Shown one piece after another: positions 8,726-62,005 of a stretch of 64,000 nt of DNA. Numbering within the stretch: position 1 is the stretch's first letter; every line of letters begins with the position of its first letter. This stretch comes from Candidatus Marinacidobacterales bacterium (GTDB taxonomy: Bacteria; Acidobacteriota; Vicinamibacteria; Marinacidobacterales; SMYC01), in NCBI GenBank assembly GCA_965237955.1, contig OZ250169.1:1792001-1856000 (forward strand), in the 5' to 3' direction. The notes beneath the pieces are model-generated. The model did not search any database. It was not told the origin of the DNA and saw nothing but the letters and a program-made list of their open reading frames with translations. The translations under genes were made by a program, and so were the position numbers.

Positions 8726-10435
8726 ATGCGACGTGGCCTTTTCTTCTGCGTTCTCGTCACCATCGGGGGATTGGTCGCGGGATGCGGGTCGCCTCCTGCG
8801 GCGGACGAGGGCGTTTTGCGCGTGGCCCTGTCACGCGAGCCGGCCACGTGGAACCGCTTGCTGGCCGCGGACTACCCCACTCATGTCGTCACCGATCAGC
8901 TCCACGCTCCGTTGATTCGTTTGAACCAGGAGACGCAGCTAATGGAGCCGGCGCTGGCGGAGTCGTGGGAGTTTTCGGAAGATGGCGGCGAGCTCGTGTT
9001 TTACTTGCGGGACGGCGTGCGGTTTTCGGATGGCGAGCCGTTCACCGCGGACGACGTGGCGTTCACGTTCCGGGTTCTCCATGACCCCGGGGTGGCGAGC
9101 CAACTGAAAGACTCGGCGGTGATCGACGGTGAGAACATCGTCGCCCACGTCATCGACGAGACGACTGTCGGCTTCCGGCTGCCGCGCCGCACGGCTACGG
9201 TGGAGAGGATCTTCGACAGTATTCGGATCCTCCCCGAGCATCGTCTGGCGGAGAGCCTCGCCGCCGGCACGCTCGCCGCCGATACCGGACTCGGTGCGCC
9301 CATCGAGAACATCGTCGGTCTCGGAGCGTTCCGTCTGCGCGAGCACGTTCCAGGCCAGCGTATCGTCCTCGAGAAAAACCCGCATTACTTTCGATCGGGC
9401 GACGACGTGTACCCGCGACTGTCGGGAATAGTTTTCGACGTCGTACCGGACACGAACGCCCAAGTTCTCAAGCTCCGCGCCGGCGAGTTCGACCTGCTCG
9501 AGCCCATCGCGCCGGAAGCGTTTCGCGAGCTTCGACGAGAGAGTCCCGCGTCGGTCACTTTGAATGACCTCGGTCCGAGCACGGTTTCCGAGCGCCTGTG
9601 GTTCAACTTGAACCCGGCGAGCCCTATCGATGCGTACAAGAAAAAGTGGTTCGAAGACGTTCGTTTCCGTCGCGCCGTCTCCCTCGCGATCGACCGCAAG
9701 AACATGGCGCGGGTCGTGTTCGGCGGCCTGGCTTCTGCGGCGTCCGGTCCGGTGTCACCCGCCAATCATTTCTGGAGAGACGAGAGCATCCAACCGATGA
9801 AGCGTGACGTCGACAGAGCCCGACGACTCCTCGTCGACGCGGGGTTCCGGTGGGAGGACGAAAACCTCTGCGATCGCGAAGGGAACCCGGTCCGGTTCAC
9901 GATCATCACCAACGCGGGGAGCGATCAGAGACGCCAGGAGGGCGCGTTCATCCAGGAAGATTTGAGGGAGCTCGGCATCGAGACCGTCCTGGCGCCGATC
10001 GAGGGAAGTGCTTTGCTTGCTCGGATCACCGGCACGTTCGACTACGACGCATGTCTACTCGGCTTGACGCAAACGGATCCGGATCCGTCTGCGGAGATGG
10101 CGCTGTGGCTGAGTCGCGCACCGCTTCATTTGTGGCATCCGGCGCAATCGCAGCCTGCGACCGAGTGGGAAGCCCGCATCGACCACCTCATGGAGTCCCA
10201 AATGACTTCGACCGACGACGAGCACCGCAAAGCGTGCTATCACGAAGTGCAACGGATCGTTTTGGAGAACCTGCCGCTGCTCGATCTCGTGGTGCCGCAT
10301 GCGCTCGTTGGTTACAGCTCCGGATTGATGGGCGTCCGGGCGACGCCGTTCTGGCACATTTTATGGAACAGTGACGAGCTTTTCCTCGAACGAGCGACAA
10401 TCCCACGAAATTCAAACCGTGACAGAAGTCACTGA
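8726..10435 (+). CDS. ABC peptide/nickel substrate-binding lipoprotein (OppA/DppA family 5)
   Basis: Lipobox VAGC and LRDGVRFSDGEPFTADDVAFT signature; no permease genes adjacent. Confidence 0.92.
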   Translation: MRRGLFFCVLVTIGGLVAGCGSPPAADEGVLRVALSREPATWNRLLAADYPTHVVTDQLHAPLIRLNQETQLMEPALAESWEFSEDGGELVFYLRDGVRFSDGEPFTADDVAFTFRVLHDPGVASQLKDSAVIDGENIVAHVIDETTVGFRLPRRTATVERIFDSIRILPEHRLAESLAAGTLAADTGLGAPIENIVGLGAFRLREHVPGQRIVLEKNPHYFRSGDDVYPRLSGIVFDVVPDTNAQVLKLRAGEFDLLEPIAPEAFRELRRESPASVTLNDLGPSTVSERLWFNLNPASPIDAYKKKWFEDVRFRRAVSLAIDRKNMARVVFGGLASAASGPVSPANHFWRDESIQPMKRDVDRARRLLVDAGFRWEDENLCDREGNPVRFTIITNAGSDQRRQEGAFIQEDLRELGIETVLAPIEGSALLARITGTFDYDACLLGLTQTDPDPSAEMALWLSRAPLHLWHPAQSQPATEWEARIDHLMESQMTSTDDEHRKACYHEVQRIVLENLPLLDLVVPHALVGYSSGLMGVRATPFWHILWNSDELFLERATIPRNSNRDRSH

Positions 10436-10444
10436 TCCCAGGGT

Positions 10445-10649
10445 CGGGCGGGAGTAGCTTGCACCCGTACAGTGAAGTTAGAATCTTGATTCGCGGGGGC
10501 GAGGAGGTGAGCCCGGGATAACGGTTGACGTAGGGGTGGCCCCACAGCAAAGCGGCGCAAGGAAACGCGATCCTAAATCTTCTTATTCTCGTTTTTCCCG
10601 CTCTTGCTCCGGAGTCATCGAACTCTCCGTGAGCTGAACGTCCCGCCCG
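10445..10649 (+). ncRNA. Putative structured RNA (long rod-shaped hairpin, ~205 nt)
   Basis: Nested complementary segments: CGGGCGGGA/TCCCGCCCG, AGCTTGC/GTGAGCT, TGATTC/GAGTCA, GGGGCGAGGAG/CTCTTGCTCC, CGGGATAACG/CGTTTTTCCCG, TAGG/CCTA. G-U pairs favour the + strand. Confidence 0.45.
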
Positions 10650-10816
10650 TTAGTTACATCATCTTGAGCCCCGGCGCTCGGCGTCGTTCGGCCGATCTGC
10701 CGTCTATCGCGACAAAAGGAGGTTCCCCATGCAGGGTATTCTTTGGGTTTATAATTTCAGATTGACGAATAATTATTCTTCATGTGTTTTATTCCGTTAC
10801 ATTTAAGGAGAACATC

Positions 10817-10921
10817 TTGGATAACATACAAGAAGTTCAGGAAATCTTAGAACTTACCGTCGAAGAGCTCGAAGAGCGCACGGCGCCCGGCTTGGTTGTT
10901 GTTTGGATTCCATATCCATAG
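10817..10921 (+). CDS. 34-aa putative precursor/signal peptide MDNIQEVQEILELTVEELEERTAPGLVVVWIPYP
   Basis: AAGGAG RBS at 10805-10810, TTG start and TAG stop. Acidic leader with ELxxEELEERxAP, hydrophobic core, downstream hairpin. Confidence 0.7.
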   Translation: MDNIQEVQEILELTVEELEERTAPGLVVVWIPYP

Positions 10922-10957
10922 GGACATAACAAGATTCCCCGCCTAGATGTTGATTCG

Positions 10958-10981
10958 GGAGGCCGCTCGGGGGCGGTCTCC
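10958..10981 (+). terminator. Stem-loop downstream of the peptide gene
   Basis: GGAGGCCGCT-CGGG-GGCGGTCTCC hairpin with no clear U-tract. Confidence 0.5.
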
Positions 10982-11180
10982 TAAACTTCCTCCCTCGGTT
11001 TTGCTTTCCGTTTGACCCGATCCCAATACCTGTGGTAGTTTGCTTGACCTTGGGTTTTTAGATTTTCAATTGCATGGCTCCGAATAAGGGTTGGGCGCTT
11101 TTTCTACCGGCACTTTTTTCGGTTATTAATAATTTCGCTAACCCGCAGGTGCCGCCTGCAAACGTGATCCGGAGTCGCAC

Positions 11181-13681
11181 TTGGCTTGGCGTAAAGGGCC
11201 CATCGGTGTCCGCTTCTTCTCCTACACGATAGCCGGTCTGGGAGCTCTGACTCTCGGATGGGCGGCCCTGTCCGTCGGCGATTTCGTGGAAAGCCTCCCG
11301 CTCTCCGAAGGGGTCGCGTTTCTGAGCGTCGTCGCCGTCGCGTGCGTGAGCGCGCGCTGGGTCGTGCGGGTGCCACGCACGGACAACTACATGGCGGTGG
11401 CGGATTCCCTGATGCTTGCCGTGACGATGATCTACGGCGTGGTGGCGGGGGTCCTCGCGAACGGTCTCTTCTATCTCGTCAGCTATTGGTGCGTCACTCG
11501 GTCGTCGCCGCTTAGCCCCCGCCGCGACTACGCGTAGAACAATCTACAGGCGGCGTTCAACATCGGGGCGGGGGCGCTCTACGCGCTCGCGTTCGGAGTG
11601 GTCTTCTTCGCTGCGCTCCCGGAGGGTCCCATAGGCGCTCGGCAGCTGGTTATCCCCGTTGTGTTGATGGCGGGGACGTACTTCCTCGTGAACTCCGTGC
11701 TCACGGACGCCGTCCAGGCGTTAGCCGGCCGCGACGCCTTCCGGCAGCTGTGGCTCCAGAACCTCCCGCTGGTGCCGCTCTACTTTCTCGCGTCTGCCGG
11801 CGGCGCCGCCATCGTTCACCTCTTTCATGCCTTCGCAGGCCCGTGGTCATTCGTCCTGGCGTTGCCCATCCTCGTCGTCGCGTACTACGCGCATCTCTTC
11901 TACAACGAGAAGTACGAAGAGCTGTCGCGGCTCCACAAGCAAACGCTCGAAGCGTTCGCGTTTTGTATCGACGCGATGGAGCTGCACACGGACTTCAAGC
12001 ACCACACCCACACGCACATCCAACGCACCCAAGTGCTGGCGCTCTCTCTCGCGCGAGCAGTCAACGTGGACGAGACCACGTACGAGGGGCTGAGCTACGC
12101 GTCGGTCTTGCACGACGTCGGGAAGATCTCCATCCCCTCGTACATTCTTCACAAACCGACGCGGTTGACCGAGAGAGAGTTTCAGAAGATGAGCACCCAC
12201 CCTGCGGTGGGCGCACAGATAATTTCTTCGATCGATTTTCCGTTTCCCGTCGTGGAGATCGTCAGACACCACCACGAGAACTGGGACGGCTCGGGTTATC
12301 CAGATGGGCTCAAGGGAAACTCGATCCCGTTGGGCTCGCGGGTTCTCGCGCTGGCGGATTGCTACGAAGCATTGACCGCACGGCGCGTCTACCGCCGCTC
12401 GTTGTCGCGCGATGCCGCGCTCACGATCATGAAGCGCGAGAAGAACAAGTTCGATCCGGAAATCTTCAAAAAGTTTCTCGAGGTGATCCCCCAGCTTGAG
12501 CAAGAGCTGAAATCCATCGAAGTGCGCTCGCTCGAGGACCCGAGAGAGCATCGCGACCAAAAGAGAGCGCCCGACATCGTAGGAACACCGAAGGCGATGA
12601 CGTTGAGAAGCTCGATCTCGGAACCACAACAAGAGATCTTCACGCTGTTCGAGATTCTGCAGAACATCGGCAACTCGCTCTCGAGCACCGATACCCTCAC
12701 GATTCTCGCGTCCAAGCTCGAGAAGATCGTTCCGTTCACGACGCTCGTCATCTACCTTGCCGAGGAGGGGACCGAAGAGCTCAAGCCCGCCCACATTGCC
12801 GGTGAGCACAAGGAGGCGTTCGCCGAGCTTTCGATCGAGATTGGTACCCGCCTCGCCGGCTGGGTGGCGGCGAACAACCGCTTCCTCTACAACGTGCATC
12901 CGGGGCCCGACACCATGGCGCTGCCGGAGGAGATCAAGAGCCTTTATGGCAACTCGCTCCTGGCGCCGCTTGTGCACGAAGACCGACCGCTCGGCACCAT
13001 CGCGCTCTACGTGACCGGGGACGAACGCTATTCCGACGACCACATTCGCTTGATGGAGATCGTTTCTAACCGCGCGTCGATCGCGCTCTTCAACGCGACC
13101 CGATTCGAGGAGACCCAAGAAGACGCTTTTACCGATCGATTGACCGGGCTTCCGAACTCGAGGTTCCTTTACATTTTCTTCGAGCAGACGCTATCCGAGG
13201 CCAAGCGCTACGGCGAGCCGCTCACCGTGATCGAGCTCGATCTCGACGACTTCAAAGCGGTCAACGATCGGCACGGGCATCACACTGGCGATCGATTCCT
13301 CAAGGAAGTCGGCCGCATCCTCAAAGGTCACATGCGCGACGCCGACGTGCTGGTACGCTACGCTGGCGACGAGTTCATCGCGATCTTGCCGAAGACGACC
13401 TACGAGCAGGCGCGCAATTCTCCTACCGGCTTCAGGAAGCGGTCGAAGAGACCGAGCTCGATGTCGGTATCGGTTCGATGCTCAAAGTCGGCATCTCGCT
13501 CGGGCTCGCTTCTTACCCTGCCGCCGGACAGGACTTGGAATCGCTTCTCATGGCCGCGGACAAGGCCATGTACGAGGACAAAGCTCGTCGGAAGGGCCGA
13601 AAGCGCGGCAGCTCCAAATCGGACAGCTACCAGCCAAGCCTATTCGAATCGGAAGAGCTACATAGTCAGCGTCCGAATTAG
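11181..13681 (+). CDS. Membrane sensor with HD-GYP, GAF and GGDEF domains (c-di-GMP turnover); interrupted as assembled
   Basis: ORFs 11181-11537 and 11598 onward share one frame, separated by a single TAG (11535-11537). Motifs HDVGKI, HHENWDGSGYP, a GAF domain, DLDDFK and RYAGDEF. The GGDEF tail (SLGLASYP...AADKAMY) continues in another frame after ~13412. Confidence 0.88.
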
Positions 13682-13871
13682 ACCGGCATACGGCATACGG
13701 CAGAATGCGCAGTATCGCCTCACGGCAGCGCCTTCGATGAGCACGCCTTGCGGCCGCGATGAATAGGGATGGCCACAGATCAACCTACCGGCAAAACGGT
13801 GCTCGATGTGTGACACTGCCATTTACCGGCAGAGCGAGAATAGACCGGAATGCCGGATGCCGAATACCGTC
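13681..13871. repeat. Heptamer (GGCATAC/GGCATCC) inverted-repeat intergenic element
   Basis: CCGGCATACGGCATACGGCA ... TGCCGGATGCCGAATACCG between convergent genes; a related half-element is at 3440-3460. Confidence 0.6.
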
Positions 13872-17417: not shown

Positions 17418-18377
17418 TCATCGACGAGGAAACCTGCATTCCTGCGGATCCTTCTGTACGAAGCCAATGAACACCGGGTGGCGTAATCGGTGGTCCATGG
17501 TCAGCTCCGCGTACTCCACTCTCACGACGAGGGCTGGTTTCAGCCAGTCGATCTCGCCCGGGGCGTCCGCTGCGAAATTCGAAGGCCGCTCGGCTTTCAA
17601 CGGTCCCAGCTCCGTGCCGAGCTCGGCGACGGTCTTCTGATCGAGCCCGCTACCGACGTTTCCGAGCCACACGAGCGCGTCGTTCTCGTACACGCCCAAC
17701 ACCAACGATTTTACGCGACGGGTGCGGTGCTCGCGCACGATCCCGACTAGGACCCCGTCGGTGCGCCGCCTTACCTTGAGCTTCAACCAATCGTTCGAGC
17801 GCTCGCCGCACAGGTAGCGGCTTTCTAAAACCTTCGCCACCACACCCTCGAGCCCGCGCTCGTCGGCTTCCTTGAATAGCGCCTTGCCTTGGCTCAACAC
17901 GTAGGTGCTCTCGACGATCGGAGAGGGTGGTTCTTTCAAGAGATCGGACAAGAGCCGCTTGCGCTCTTCGAGCGGGCGATCGAACAACGGCTCACCGTCG
18001 CGAAACAGAAGATCGAAAGCAACATAAATGACCGGGTGTTGCCGCGCTTTGAGAAGAGCCGCATCTCGTGAAGCCGTCTGCTCACGGGTCAAGACCCGTT
18101 GGAAGTTGGGTCGACCATCGTCGTCGAGGACGATGACTTCACCGTCGAGGATGCCCTCTCCGGGCAGTTTCTCCAGCGTCGCCACGACCTCGGGATAGCG
18201 CGCGGTCGCATCCGTGAGCTTTCGCCCCTGAAGTCGAGCGACGCCGTTGCCGAAAAAAGCGAGGACGCGAATGCCGTCCCACTTGATCTCGAAGAGGTGC
18301 TTGTCGGAATCGAAAGGAGACCCCGTCCTCGCCAGCATGGGCGCAATTTTTTTGTTCAACCAGTGGTTGTGTTGCAT
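17418..18377 (-). CDS. ligD: NHEJ ATP-dependent DNA ligase (LigD ligase domain only)
   Basis: EIKWDG, LDGEV, VAFDLL, EGVVAK, WLKLK and LRHPVF motifs; adjacent to Ku. Confidence 0.9.
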   Translation of the reverse strand: MQHNHWLNKKIAPMLARTGSPFDSDKHLFEIKWDGIRVLAFFGNGVARLQGRKLTDATARYPEVVATLEKLPGEGILDGEVIVLDDDGRPNFQRVLTREQTASRDAALLKARQHPVIYVAFDLLFRDGEPLFDRPLEERKRLLSDLLKEPPSPIVESTYVLSQGKALFKEADERGLEGVVAKVLESRYLCGERSNDWLKLKVRRRTDGVLVGIVREHRTRRVKSLVLGVYENDALVWLGNVGSGLDQKTVAELGTELGPLKAERPSNFAADAPGEIDWLKPALVVRVEYAELTMDHRLRHPVFIGFVQKDPQECRFPRR

Positions 18378-18382
18378 GGTGC

Positions 18383-18499
18383 GCCATCGGCCATCAGCCG
18401 TCAGCCATCGGCCCGACCACGGTGAGTCGCGCGTGCCGGCATGGGGCGATTGAAAGGACCAAGGAAACAGCTGACGGCTGATGGCCGATGGCTGAAGGC
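18383..18499. repeat. (GCCRTCR)n heptamer inverted-repeat element
   Basis: GCCATCGGCCATCAGCCGTCAGCC ... GCTGACGGCTGATGGCCGATGGC between ku and ligD. Confidence 0.75.
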
Positions 18500-18516
18500 G
18501 GATCCGTGCGCACGAT

Positions 18517-19335
18517 CTACTCGTTCGCAGCTTTCGCGCGCTCTTCGCCCGCTTCCCTTGGAGCCAGCTCACTCTTTTCCAGACTCGACTTGAGGGCATC
18601 CATCAGATTAATGACTTTGCCCGTTTCCACTTCCGGCGGCTCCACGATCTCTTTGCCCTCGGCCTTGGCTTTGACGATGTCGAGGAGAGCTTTTTTGTAG
18701 TTGTCCGCGAATTCCTCGGGATGGAAAGGCTTGGTGATCGACTCGATGAGCTCGCTCGCGAGCTTCAGCTCGTCGGGATTGACCTCGGGATTGGCGTCGA
18801 GCTCTTCGATTCCCGAAAGCGCGCGGACCTCATCCGCGAAGTAGAGAGCCGACATCACGAACACCTTCTCGCGTGGCCGGATGGCGACGACTTGCTCTTT
18901 ACCGTTCATGACGACGCGCGCGAGCCCGATGCGCTCTTTTTCCTCCGTCGCGTGCAGGATCGTCGCGAAGCTTTCGATCGCGACGGGTCCATCCGGGACC
19001 ACGTAGTGCGAGCCGTGGTAGTAGAGTGGATCGATCTCGCCCCGGTTGACGAACTGGACGATATTGATGGACTTCGTGCTTTCGAGGCGCACTTTGGTGA
19101 AGTCTTCCTCGTCCATGATGACGTACTGTTCTTTGGCGTATTCGTAGCCTTTGACGATCTCATCGCTCGAAACGCTGCGCTCGCACGTGGGGCAACGCTT
19201 GTCGTACTTGACGCGAGAGTTGCACTCTTTGTGAATCTGATTGAAGGATAGTGATTGGGATCGCGCTGCGGGGTACAGGCGAACGGGGATGTTCACGAGC
19301 GAAAGCTTGAGGAAACCCTTCCATGTCGGTCTCAT
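18517..19335 (-). CDS. ku: NHEJ DNA end-binding protein Ku
   Basis: MRPTWKG.L..SLVNIPV.LY, IVKGYEY and INLMDALK motifs. Confidence 0.96.
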   Translation of the reverse strand: MRPTWKGFLKLSLVNIPVRLYPAARSQSLSFNQIHKECNSRVKYDKRCPTCERSVSSDEIVKGYEYAKEQYVIMDEEDFTKVRLESTKSINIVQFVNRGEIDPLYYHGSHYVVPDGPVAIESFATILHATEEKERIGLARVVMNGKEQVVAIRPREKVFVMSALYFADEVRALSGIEELDANPEVNPDELKLASELIESITKPFHPEEFADNYKKALLDIVKAKAEGKEIVEPPEVETGKVINLMDALKSSLEKSELAPREAGEERAKAANE

Positions 19336-19442
19336 CGTGCGTCCCTCCGATCCGAAGTGTAGAAGGGCAGTCGACTGCGTGTCAACGCTTTGGTCAGGAG
19401 ATCCGATGCAAGACACGCTATGTCAATTTGGAGATAAGAAAA

Positions 19443-59341: not shown

Positions 59342-62005
59342 ATGTCCCAGCGCAAACGCTTTCTCGTGCCCGAGGTCGTCCAATCGTCGGGGATGGACTG
59401 TGGTCCAGCCGCGCTCAAAGCGTTCGTCGAGGGCCACGGAGTGTCGGTGAGCTATGGCCGACTGCGCGAAGCCTGCCAGACCGACGTCGACGGGACTGCG
59501 ATCGAGACCCTCGAAGAGATCGCGAACGAGCTCGGCGTTCTCGTGGAGCAAGTCATGCTCCCGAAAGATCTCGTGCTGCTCGAAGAGGCTGAAGCGCTGC
59601 CGTGCATTGCAGTCATGCGGCTTCCGAACGGCAACACCCACTTCGCGGTGATTTGGAGCGTGGTCGCAGGCATCGTCCAGGTGATGGATCCAGCGACGGG
59701 ACGCCGGTGGATGACGCGTGGCCAGCTCGTGCACGAGCTCTACGAGCACAACCTGCCGGTGCCGGCCGGAGACTGGCGTGAGTGGGCGAGCTCTGAGCAG
59801 GGACTGGGCCTCCTCACAAGACGTCTTTCCGCATTGAATGTTTCGAAGGGCACGGTCGACGAGCTCATCAGGAAGGCGCTGTCGGATCCCAGCTGGCGAT
59901 CGCTCGCGGCGCTCGACGCGGCCGTGCGCGCGGTGCGATCCATGCTCGATGCCGGCGCGTGCCGCAGTGGTGACGAAGCGGCGTCCCTCGTCGCTACGTT
60001 ATTCAAAGATGCCGACTCCATCCCCAGGAGCTACTGGTCTACGAAAGCGTTGCCGGATGCGCCTGGGCCAGATACTGATAACGACGTCGTGGACGAGATC
60101 ATGATCAGGGGCGCGGTACTCCTGCGACTCGACCGATCGCCCGCGAGCGAGAGAGTTTCCTCGCCGTCGCTTTCGCGGGCAATCGAGGCGGCGCGTGACG
60201 AAGAGCCGGCCCGGCCGGGGTGGGAGCTTTGGTCGCGGATCCGTGAAGACGGGCTCCTCACGCCGGCGGTCCTTGTCGCGGCGTTTGCCGGCGCCGCCGC
60301 AGCGGTTGTCATCGAGGCTCTTTTGTTCCGGTCTCTTCTCGAGCTCGCGCCGCTCTTCGGGCTTTCCGAGTATCGCGTCGGCATCGTCGGCGCCCTTCTC
60401 GCGTTCATGTTGGTAGCACTCGTGATCGACTACGCCGCGATCACCGGCGAGCTTCGTATCGGCCGGCGCTTGGAGGCGCGACTTCGGGTCGCGTTTCAAG
60501 AGAAAATCCCGCGGCTCGGAGATCGCTACTTCGGCAGCCGGCTCATCTCCGACATGGCGGAGCGCAACCACAGCATCCACTTGTTGAGGACGCTGCCCAA
60601 GCTCGCGGGCCAGCTCCTGCGGACGAGTTTCGAGATGGTTCTCACCACGGCGGCGATTATCTGGCTGGAGCCCGGGACGAGTGTGGTGGTGCTGCTCGTC
60701 GTGGCCGCGTCGCTTGTGATCCCGCTCGCGGGCCAGCCCGTGTTTCAAGAGCGCGATCTTCGGGTGCGAAGCCACGTCGGAGCGCTGAGCCGGTTCTATC
60801 TCGATGCGCTCTTAGGACTGATTCCGCTACGCGTCCACGGCGCGCAGAAACCGATTCGGACCGAGCACGAGAGTCTCCTCGTCGAGTGGGCGCGCGCGCG
60901 GCTCGGATTGCAACGGATGGCCACAGGCCTCGAAGCCGCGCAGTTTTGCGTCGGCTACGGTTTGATTGTGCTGTTGCTGCTCTCGTACTTGAATCAAGGC
61001 GGTGAGCCGGCGGCGGTGTTGCTCCTCGCTTACTGGGCGTTGAATCTTCCCGTGCTCGGTCTTCAGCTCGTTCGGCTCGCGTGGCGCTACCCGGAGCAGC
61101 GGAATACGGCTCTGCGTGTGACTGAGCCGCTCCGCGCGAGCGAGGAGTCTGAGCAAGCGCCCGTCGCTGACCGCACCCCCTTGGGCACGGGTCCTATTGC
61201 TATTCGATTGGAGAACGCCACGGTACGCAGGGCGGGTCACGTCATTCTCGACAACCTCGACGTCGACATCGACGCTGGCAGCCACGTCGCGATCGTCGGC
61301 CGATCGGGCTCGGGCAAGACGAGTCTGTTCGGTCTTCTGCTCGGCTGGCACTTTCCCGACGAAGGCCGAGTCCTCGTCGACGGTTCCATTCTGGGCGGCG
61401 AGCGTTTAGACGAGATGCGGGCGCGTACCGCCTGGGTCGACCCCGCAGTGCAGATCTGGAATCGCAGTCTCATCGAGAACCTTCGCTATGGGAACGACAA
61501 CCGCGCGGAGTTTCCGCTGGCAACGATCGTCGAGCAAGCCGAGCTCTTGCCGGTGCTCGAGATGTTGCCCCAAGGACATCAGACGCTGCTTGGTGAGGGA
61601 GGCGGCCTCGTTTCCGGCGGTGAAGGCCAACGAGTTCGGCTGGGACGAGCCCTGTTGCGGCCGGATGTTTCCCTCGTGCTCCTCGACGAGCCGTTTCGCG
61701 GTCTCGGGCGTGAGCTGCGCGCGGTGCTTCTGCGACGAGCGCGCGCGCATTGGCGGGAGGCCACGCTTTTGTGCATCACCCACGATATGAGCGAGACCGA
61801 GGGATTCGATCGCGTGCTCGTCCTCGACGGGGGCCGTATCGTCGAAGACGGACCACCGGGCGAGCTCTTGTCTCGGAAGAGCTCGCGATACCGCGCGCTC
61901 GTCGATTCCGAACGTGAGCTCAGGTCGCTTTGGTCCGACGGTTCGTGGCGCAAGTGGGAAATCCGCGACGGTGCGATTCACGAGCGTGAGCATGAGGCCC
62001 TTTGA
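59342..62005 (+). CDS. Peptidase C39-containing ABC exporter (PCAT)
   Basis: Q...DCG, HF and MDPA triad; TM domain; GRSGSGKT, VSGGE, LLDE and ITHD. Confidence 0.93.
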   Translation: MSQRKRFLVPEVVQSSGMDCGPAALKAFVEGHGVSVSYGRLREACQTDVDGTAIETLEEIANELGVLVEQVMLPKDLVLLEEAEALPCIAVMRLPNGNTHFAVIWSVVAGIVQVMDPATGRRWMTRGQLVHELYEHNLPVPAGDWREWASSEQGLGLLTRRLSALNVSKGTVDELIRKALSDPSWRSLAALDAAVRAVRSMLDAGACRSGDEAASLVATLFKDADSIPRSYWSTKALPDAPGPDTDNDVVDEIMIRGAVLLRLDRSPASERVSSPSLSRAIEAARDEEPARPGWELWSRIREDGLLTPAVLVAAFAGAAAAVVIEALLFRSLLELAPLFGLSEYRVGIVGALLAFMLVALVIDYAAITGELRIGRRLEARLRVAFQEKIPRLGDRYFGSRLISDMAERNHSIHLLRTLPKLAGQLLRTSFEMVLTTAAIIWLEPGTSVVVLLVVAASLVIPLAGQPVFQERDLRVRSHVGALSRFYLDALLGLIPLRVHGAQKPIRTEHESLLVEWARARLGLQRMATGLEAAQFCVGYGLIVLLLLSYLNQGGEPAAVLLLAYWALNLPVLGLQLVRLAWRYPEQRNTALRVTEPLRASEESEQAPVADRTPLGTGPIAIRLENATVRRAGHVILDNLDVDIDAGSHVAIVGRSGSGKTSLFGLLLGWHFPDEGRVLVDGSILGGERLDEMRARTAWVDPAVQIWNRSLIENLRYGNDNRAEFPLATIVEQAELLPVLEMLPQGHQTLLGEGGGLVSGGEGQRVRLGRALLRPDVSLVLLDEPFRGLGRELRAVLLRRARAHWREATLLCITHDMSETEGFDRVLVLDGGRIVEDGPPGELLSRKSSRYRALVDSERELRSLWSDGSWRKWEIRDGAIHEREHEAL

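Follow-up and report, generated by a model that had tools for sequence, protein, structure and literature searches.

What do two very small genes do in front of a membrane-bound enzyme of cyclic di-GMP (c-di-GMP) turnover in a bacterium with two membranes? The question is raised by a stretch of 64,000 nucleotides, here called the window, from Candidatus Marinacidobacterales bacterium (assembly GCA_965237955.1, contig OZ250169.1, positions 1,792,001 to 1,856,000). In it a short leader–core peptide precursor lies upstream of a gene for a membrane domain fused to HD-GYP, GAF and GGDEF-type domains, referred to below as the receptor. The original prediction, made from the letters alone, was that the peptide is a signal coupled to c-di-GMP. 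This is still the best reading: in relatives whose locus is intact, peptide-gated control of c-di-GMP by a MASE9-like enzyme is, on balance, probable.

The cassette of small genes and receptor lies on the plus strand, and most of its first description has held. The intergenic region is AT-rich, with 51% GC compared to 61% for the whole window, and 29% at 10740–10830. An AAGGAG ribosome-binding site (RBS) at 10805–10810 precedes a TTG-started open reading frame (ORF) of 34 residues at 10817–10921, with the sequence originally given; it would be translated into a leader and the core GLVVVWIPYP, the cut being predicted after Ala-Pro. A gap measured at 259 bp, quoted before as about 260 bp, separates it from the receptor gene at 11181–13681. 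What had been missed is a second conserved micro-ORF of seven codons, MQGILWV, at 10729–10752, with its own AAGGAGG at 10716–10722. The leader motif EELEERxAP occurs in only one short ORF of this type in the single-contig 8.13-Mb genome, as seen in a genome-wide ORF scan, and neither Pfam nor NCBIfam names a family for the leader–core peptide.

Are the two ORFs genes? A receptor genome scan (best 80 of 592 relatives) yielded 11 full-length close orthologues with 59–89% identity, in records named Acidobacteriota, Vicinamibacteria or Ca. Marinacidobacterales. Relatives had been expected to share an EELEERxAP leader followed by a variable core, and this is what lies upstream of the receptor at 11 of 11 close loci, the core being hydrophobic; the leader is frameshifted in L008 and present in three copies in L010 and two in L011. 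A 7–8-codon ORF of the form M-x(1-2)-G[IV][LV]W[VI], with a strong RBS, precedes the leader gene at all 11, and at some loci a further copy follows it. In a class sample of 301 genomes, which includes these 11, the peptide profile matches 23 genomes—20 at the oppA–receptor locus and three at other loci—and the micro-ORF is present in all 20 cassette genomes (19 by pattern; G107 reads MNGILWA). When copies are compared in pairs, the differences at the three codon positions come to 0.21/0.00/0.50 for the 23 copies of GILWV and to 0.12/0.05/0.45 for the 22 of the leader motif, while a stop codon follows the micro-ORF immediately in 22 of 23 copies, with TGA, TAG and TAA all used. Judging from these codon-position differences and from stops of all three kinds, micro-ORF and leader are both under selection as protein. 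Nor is the 34-residue ORF a product of chance, since it is unique in the genome, recurs at all 11 close loci and shows this codon-position signal.

The proposed linkage of the leader to this receptor family is equally consistent, in that every one of the 20 genomes with the leader at the locus has a close receptor; the close receptor was found in one further genome, at a contig edge. The order of the locus is hem genes, oppA, micro-ORF, leader, hairpin, receptor, oppB, oppC and tdk. In the window the syntenic block opens with the gene for an OppA-like family-5 solute-binding lipoprotein of 569 residues (8726–10435, plus strand; PF00496, E 1e-75); a long match to it precedes the peptides at 10 of the 11 close loci, and L003 has a contig-cut end. 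This OppA had been called an orphan; that does not apply to most relatives, where oppB follows the receptor (9 of 11 close loci), and it stands for the window's own subclade, from which oppB and oppC are missing. Five genomes of the same family or order without the cassette were looked at, G146 (84% complete) being left out. In G074 and G080 the peptides and the membrane domain have been removed by one deletion, in G089 the peptides and receptor are lost and oppA is kept, and in G059 and G083 the region is an assembly gap.

Composition of the core varies, and Trp-free cores (GIIIGL, GMIVVL, GVIVAF) are found; within a receptor subclade, genomes have cores in common, although kin share labels. 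A second leader gene in G155 (L109; G155:C7:42875–42958) has the core GIVIVIY and no receptor within 1.5 kb. In G143 (L003:777–3784) YcaO and TfuA genes have been inserted between leader gene and receptor; siblings sharing the GIIIGL core are without them at this site, so thioamidation would be lineage-specific. Another insertion of about 1.7 kb between leader and receptor (L006:2050–3720) carries small mobile-element-like ORFs and a repeated TATACTAG-like end, and breaks the second micro-ORF region.

The motif of the micro-ORF reappears further out in the receptor family. Among distant receptors, which have 28–40% identity, 67 homologues showed no leader in the 1.2 kb upstream. Tandem repeats of hydrophobic-hydrophobic-W-[GSD] are present at 43 of the 67 distant loci, mostly at the C-terminus of an S8 subtilase encoded directly upstream. 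A looser pattern was applied to 72 tree rows, after two that were second paralogues had been set aside; in 64 of them a unit repeated at least three times (SIVWS, TIVWG, GIIWG, QILWS, GLVWS) lies near the receptor. RBS-led micro-ORFs such as MRTIIVWD, MRKLIIWGE and MKTLIVWGD occur in 24 of the 72, all 89–250 nt before the membrane-domain segment and, where both are in view, between protease and receptor; the background of such micro-ORFs is 14 in the 8.13-Mb genome, or 0.0086 per 10 kb on a single strand. With 18 rows, a support of 100 and a long stem of 3.89 in what is a quick tree only, the window's clade keeps the micro-ORF, and its leader gene occupies the place that the S8 gene has elsewhere. 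Several leader cores (GIVWGG, GLVWT, GIIWGD, GIVWAE) spell the family unit, the latter two in precursors P0054 and P0027. A short hydrophobic-Trp motif thus travels with the MASE9-like sensor. The cassette reads as a hybrid of an S8/MASE9 module with a second module, in which the leader belongs with a fusion protein of an RRE (recognition element of RiPPs, ribosomally synthesised and post-translationally modified peptides), an M50 peptidase and HlyD. Neither an S8-repeat gene nor a second MASE9-like receptor was found in this genome.

What kind of enzyme would such peptides meet? Intact receptor homologues are 830–846 residues long and have all motifs, with HDVGK, HHENWDG[ST]GYP, RxxD and AGDEF in 29 of 29 long homologues. 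HD-GYP domains were recognised by HD, HHExh(D/N)GxGYP and RxY[K/R], and RVYR in the window is a c-di-GMP-type RxY[K/R] motif. AGDEF is active in VCA0965, as given in the available text of PMC3974145. For the membrane domain, the MASE9 family PF20972 (Pfam cut-off 24.3 bits) scores 14.4–19.9 bits in six close orthologues and 16.0–23.6 in three distant ones, with no match for L001 and L002; it is listed in a precomputed table for P0088, a close homologue. The order and eight-segment pattern of MASE9 are found here, with F128, N129, Y169, F170, N173 and W193 conserved. Galperin and Chou (bioRxiv 10.1101/2021.11.05.467447, available text) proposed that the ligand of MASE9 binds within the membrane.

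A model of L001 residues 1–270 (pLDDT 87.6, 87 sequences) shows eight membrane helices, rather than the six or seven first counted, and a beta-hairpin. The fold resembles S-components of energy-coupling factor (ECF) transporters, namely NikM (4m5c; Z 14.7, rmsd 3.1, 194 aligned) and RibU (Z 13.1). In 18 close sequences the loops capping the pocket average 2.9, 3.8 and 2.0 Lys plus Arg, against 0.5, 0, 0.5 and 0.3 in the opposite loops, and the conserved F128, N129, F170, N173 and W193 lie on the pocket-loop side. Counting the helices back from the cytoplasmic HD-GYP domain places the capping loops in the cytoplasm. The sensor is modelled as an inverted ECF S-component fold whose pocket is predicted, by analogy, to face the cytoplasm, and the outside-facing, ComD/AgrC-like receptor of the original prediction is not supported. 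A complex prediction of the L001 membrane domain with a 33-residue precursor frame scored 0.02 in both runs, its controls remaining unfolded, and speaks neither for nor against binding.

How might the precursor be processed? A metagenome scan for EELEER[IT]APG returned at least 124 stretches, and 78 loci, most of them short and a few of them chance matches, were listed and analysed. Among these, 18 match the N-terminal half of an RRE(PqqD)-M50-HlyD fusion of about 800 residues, 23 match any M50/HlyD query, and seven are the present receptor locus. The leader also lies beside an RRE-M50-HlyD fusion in the three class genomes that have it elsewhere. Leaders end in [AS]P followed by G, with no GG or GA site (13 aligned copies; 22 copies). 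In daptides, the leader ELExMEAP has Pro at −1 and is removed by an RRE-site-2 protease, according to the accessible part of bioRxiv 10.1101/2023.03.08.531785. This precedent places the cut after AP, and not after TAPG as first drawn, so that the core starts with Gly like the micro-peptide. By analogy, cleavage of the precursor after Ala-Pro by an RRE-M50-HlyD protein encoded elsewhere is likely.

An orphan fusion that is 33% identical along its length to a peptide-adjacent fusion was found in 18 of the 20 cassette genomes (20 loci fetched, plus RRE-M50-half searches in 10 genomes), G056 having it in pieces; it was found neither in this genome (G000) nor in G107. In relatives the orthologous fusion has an intact HExxH and a TonB-like barrel gene upstream, with no peptide in the fetched flanks (18 loci). 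This TonB-like outer-membrane barrel, which precedes the fusion in most relatives, is a possible outer-membrane route for the peptide. YcaO is absent from this genome. TfuA occurs in two of the 19 genomes of the family, and only that of G143 adjoins the precursor; the cassette peptide appears to have no general modifying enzyme.

The leader has other settings as well. At L180 (G286), L221, L216, L230 and L258, EELEERIAP precursors form arrays, their cores being rich in Gly, Asn and Pro (GYEGQPGNQ, NPGNNN); these arrays adjoin an RRE-M50-HlyD fusion and often a 2OG-Fe(II) oxygenase, and are likely a RiPP family. Tandem leaders with short basic cores lie beside GAF-HlyD and RRE-M50-HlyD genes, and with a divergent transcriptional-activator-like gene, at L202, L233, L186, L195 and L210. 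Multi-core precursors sharing the leader consist of repeated VEELEEVIAPG-xxx-NHNETL units (P0021, P0028, P0029, P0032, P0033 and about 25 more).

Transcription of the cassette appears to be divided. The hairpin announced after the ORF is present at 10957–10982, GC-rich and followed by a pyrimidine tract, and is likely the terminator of the peptide transcript. Of 19 genomes, 16 have a stem at this position, its sequence varying among them, though the hairpin alone is no better than shuffles (z −1.1). Downstream lies the promoter-like TTGACC-18 nt-TGnTAGTTT (11012–11041), likely a separate promoter of the receptor; since its TGnTAnnnT columns (11033–11041) are invariant in 12 of 12 aligned sequences, it suggests that the receptor gene is driven by its own promoter after the hairpin. 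A promoter and terminator consensus scan of the plus strand called neither element. Two RNA-library runs of one study gave sister-strain contigs over the peptide region that end at 10883 and 10940, and these runs contain only 0.06 of the words of 10400–13800; they are a weak hint of a separate short peptide transcript. A further run, X16, had no contigs over the peptide region. Rfam gave no match at E ≤ 1 in 10380–11250 and none at E ≤ 0.5 across 19 orthologous loci, and therefore no known riboswitch. A conserved GGC[GA]AGGAGGTGA-CCCGGGAT element at 10495–10519, near the start of the RNA contigs and shared by several orthologous loci, is RBS-like, with no ORF behind it and no Rfam match.

In the strain of the window, the cassette is in decay. 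The original prediction described an enzyme with intact HD-GYP, GAF and AGDEF domains; the gene here is a pseudogene, with an in-frame TAG at 11535–11537 inside the membrane domain and a 1-nt frameshift at 13413 inside GGDEF, which cuts the domain after profile position 100 of 161. The micro-ORF has also lost its stop, so that reading continues to 10806, and the leader gene starts with TTG where sister strains have ATG. Contigs of near-identical strains from three other studies (X3, X8, X14) show TGG at 11535 and one extra G at 13413; in them the leader gene starts with ATG and the micro-ORF has its TAG at 10750–10752. The core GLVVVWIPYP is identical in X8. The receptor lesions recur letter for letter, with no other letters, in short-read contigs of run X1, which may be the source sample, and a rough tblastn against relatives' ORFs found a frameshift in the receptor only (4 of 68 rows, all receptor). 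On these two grounds an assembly error was rejected and the lesions are read as real decay; recoding of TAG was rejected too, given TGG at 11535–11537 in sister strains. By its four lesions the strain carries a decaying copy of the cassette. The RRE-M50-HlyD fusion, in turn, was not found at its syntenic site in G000, where the TonB-like barrel gene is kept (C1:7631690–7634536) and unrelated DNA follows in place of the fusion. Cassette and fusion have decayed jointly in the same strain. Another assembly calls the read-through micro-ORF in frame with an ATG-started leader gene (P0004, an ENA protein of 63 residues), which points either to decay at a halfway stage or to a homopolymer error.

For intact relatives a circuit can be proposed. 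The RRE of the orphan RRE-M50-HlyD fusion would bind the precursor, which would be cut after AP and the core exported. The exported core would return, probably via the adjacent OppA/OppBC served by an ATPase encoded at another locus. Both peptides would then act on the inward-facing pocket of the membrane domain, where binding would shift the balance between HD-GYP and AGDEF, that is between the breaking and the making of c-di-GMP. From within the cell, the leaderless micro-peptide would gain access to the pocket and serve as an unvarying agonist or brake, while the variable exported core would provide a population-level, lineage-specific input. The most complete form of this proposal is a quorum-type circuit that a diderm lineage would have assembled from two modules otherwise found apart. 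The S8 repeat tail of the MASE9 module would have been swapped for a daptide-like leader peptide, which a pump-less RRE-M50-HlyD protein exports; Opp would re-import the 5–10-residue core, and the S-component pocket facing the cytoplasm would read this core against the unchanging internal 7-mer and so switch a bifunctional c-di-GMP enzyme. This form is put forward tentatively, as a possibility that we would not bet on.

Several observations weigh against peptide-gated control. Its weakest steps are re-import and the dependence on M50. As to the first, peptides and receptor are intact in the window's subclade (L001, L002), from which oppB and oppC are missing, no in-frame ABC ATPase motif was present in nine oppBC loci checked (one match lay on the opposite strand), and oppA survives the loss of the cassette in G089. 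As to the second, the M50 fusion is missing from G107, where the receptor is open and both peptides persist; the fusion is intact in G059, whose cassette falls in an assembly gap, and broken copies persist without the cassette in G080 and G089. The C39 transporter likewise occurs in 18 of 20 cassette genomes, and the peptidase is linked to the cassette only in trans. In G074 and in G080 one deletion of adjacent DNA accounts for the joint loss, which is therefore no sign of functional coupling. The genomes belong to two families that are related to each other, so they do not count as independent. MASE9 scores fall below the Pfam cut-off in all nine matching proteins, and the RNA hint comes from one study, from contigs only and without a silent-stretch control. 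Finally, many cores lack Trp, so the core may not use the site of the micro-peptide.

That last point feeds the alternative which survives best, though we think it improbable. Here the leaderless micro-peptide alone would be a ligand or small subunit of the receptor inside the cell, while the leader–core gene would encode an exported product of its own (either a minimal RiPP or something surface-active) that shares the promoter and goes unsensed by the enzyme. It is indeed the micro-ORF that recurs at distant S8 loci (24 of 72), and it is nearly invariant, many cores are Trp-free, and at other loci many unrelated cores follow leaders of this family; a further leader gene of G155 has no receptor within 1.5 kb, and G143 has the YcaO-TfuA insertion. 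Against this, the leader gene sits where distant loci have the S8-repeat gene, the cores GIVWGG, GLVWT and GIIWGD spell the family motif, all 20 leader-bearing cassette genomes keep the leader at the receptor, and cores follow receptor subclades, with the same reservation about labels shared by kin.

Less probable still is the route that the original prediction favoured, in which a C39 peptidase-ABC transporter cuts after Gly and exports LVVVWIPYP, to be sensed from the periplasmic face of the receptor as in ComC/ComD. Double-glycine leaders have the consensus GG or GA at −2/−1. The window itself contains the genome's only C39 peptidase-ABC gene, at a distance of 48 kb and with a second ABC half after it (59342–62005, plus strand; the same pair is seen at L082:4003–6114). 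This transporter type, found in 29 of the 301 class genomes, has a range near that of the peptide: 15/18 in f1, 7/8 in f3 and 0/28 in f2, besides the cassette genomes mentioned above. The leader has no GG or GA site; an EELEERxAP peptide is present in none of 19 C39-transporter neighbourhoods, C39 matched at none of the 78 listed metagenome leader loci, and the double-glycine claim falls with these counts. The transporter also occurs in 10 genomes without the peptide found at the locus or at all, and the pocket side is predicted to be cytoplasmic. Co-occurrence alone cannot choose between the two peptidases; M50 is preferred because of its neighbourhood and the daptide precedent.

An equally doubtful last alternative, that the small ORFs are cis-acting translational elements such as a Trp-codon attenuator, or structural small subunits without a signal, has on its side that a 7-codon ORF with a conserved Trp codon before a gene resembles leader-peptide attenuators and that a hairpin follows, and it founders on the conservation of all five GILWV residues and not Trp alone, on micro-ORFs both before and after the leader gene, on motif repeats inside S8 protein tails, where attenuation makes no sense, and on the receptor's apparent promoter of its own.

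Peptide-gated control by a MASE9-like enzyme has partial precedents. Gram-positive bacteria use the pairs ComC/ComD and AgrD/AgrC, and the export–reimport systems Phr/Rap and SHP/Rgg with Opp. Shared with these are a small precursor beside a receptor, a short hydrophobic core that varies by lineage, and a nearby Opp suggesting re-import. The present host is a diderm, however, the receptor belongs neither with HPK10 kinases nor with TPR regulators, and there is a second, leaderless peptide; where ComD and AgrC have a histidine kinase output, HD-GYP, GAF and GGDEF stand here, and where RRNPP and Rgg/SHP systems have a cytoplasmic TPR/HTH receptor, there is a membrane enzyme. The published MASE9-HD-GYP-GAF-GGDEF proteins (PF20972; bioRxiv 10.1101/2021.11.05.467447) have the same domain order, eight segments of which two are short, and the aromatic and Asn residues; the available text gives no ligand for them, whereas this long-branched subgroup, below the cut-off, has two candidate peptide ligands. 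Similarity to the ECF S-components NikM (4m5c), RibU (5kbw/3p5n) and CbiM (5x3x) extends over 163–195 residues (Z 12.6–14.7, rmsd 2.9–4.1); the receptor domain differs in being predicted inverted, enzyme-fused and without an ECF module, at 8–15% identity, and a common fold shows no function.

On the side of the leader, daptides share ELExxxAP with Pro at −1 and an aliphatic core, as far as their available description goes; their leader is removed by an RRE fused to an M50 intramembrane peptidase (PF02163; MpaP/DapP), as is proposed here, and ELEERTAP agrees with their leader at E(−8), L(−7), E(−6), A(−2) and P(−1). Unlike daptides, the cassette has no invariant C-terminal Thr (1 of 22 cores) and no DapB/C/D/M; its neighbours are oppA and a receptor instead of an ABC exporter, and its likely peptidase carries an HlyD adaptor and lies elsewhere. 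The type-I-secretion-like M50/HlyD/GAF module of Kamneva, Poudel and Ward 2015 (PMC4452313) combines HlyD with a weak Peptidase_M50, has no ABC pump and was proposed to have a secretion role; in the accessible part of that paper it is linked to SecA_DEAD and no small-peptide cargo is named, while here a single orphan fusion stands behind a TonB-like barrel gene and would have a leader peptide as its substrate. Thioamitides have YcaO and TfuA with the precursor, and YcaO is missing here. By analogy, the cassette would work like export–reimport signalling, yet it is not a member of the ComC/ComD, RRNPP, daptide or thioamitide systems. A literature search, with most subscription journals outside its reach, returned no publication on the peptides or on the pairing of peptide and receptor.

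Elsewhere in the window, an ATP-dependent DNA ligase gene lies beside a Ku-like gene on the minus strand (17418–19416), as read from translations only. The genome is rich in insertion sequences (L082), and a small ORF ending in EWVVEDRNTLIVRRTPKAKRGRKRGKRG, with 13 copies in G000, is probably part of one.

What would the finding mean? MASE9 is an orphan sensor, and the cassette offers two candidate ligands that are cheap to synthesise, a 7-mer and a 5–10-mer, together with their cognate enzyme, whose activity is simple to read out. Experiments will need an intact relative, because the copy here is a pseudogene and the likely processing gene is absent. The 7-codon gene is conserved, and no annotation would call such an ORF. 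If the proposal is correct, and in its most complete form, GILWV-type peptides would be the first ligands of MASE9. RRE-M50-HlyD proteins would then gain a signalling cargo, and peptide signalling in a double-membraned bacterium would be wired straight to c-di-GMP.

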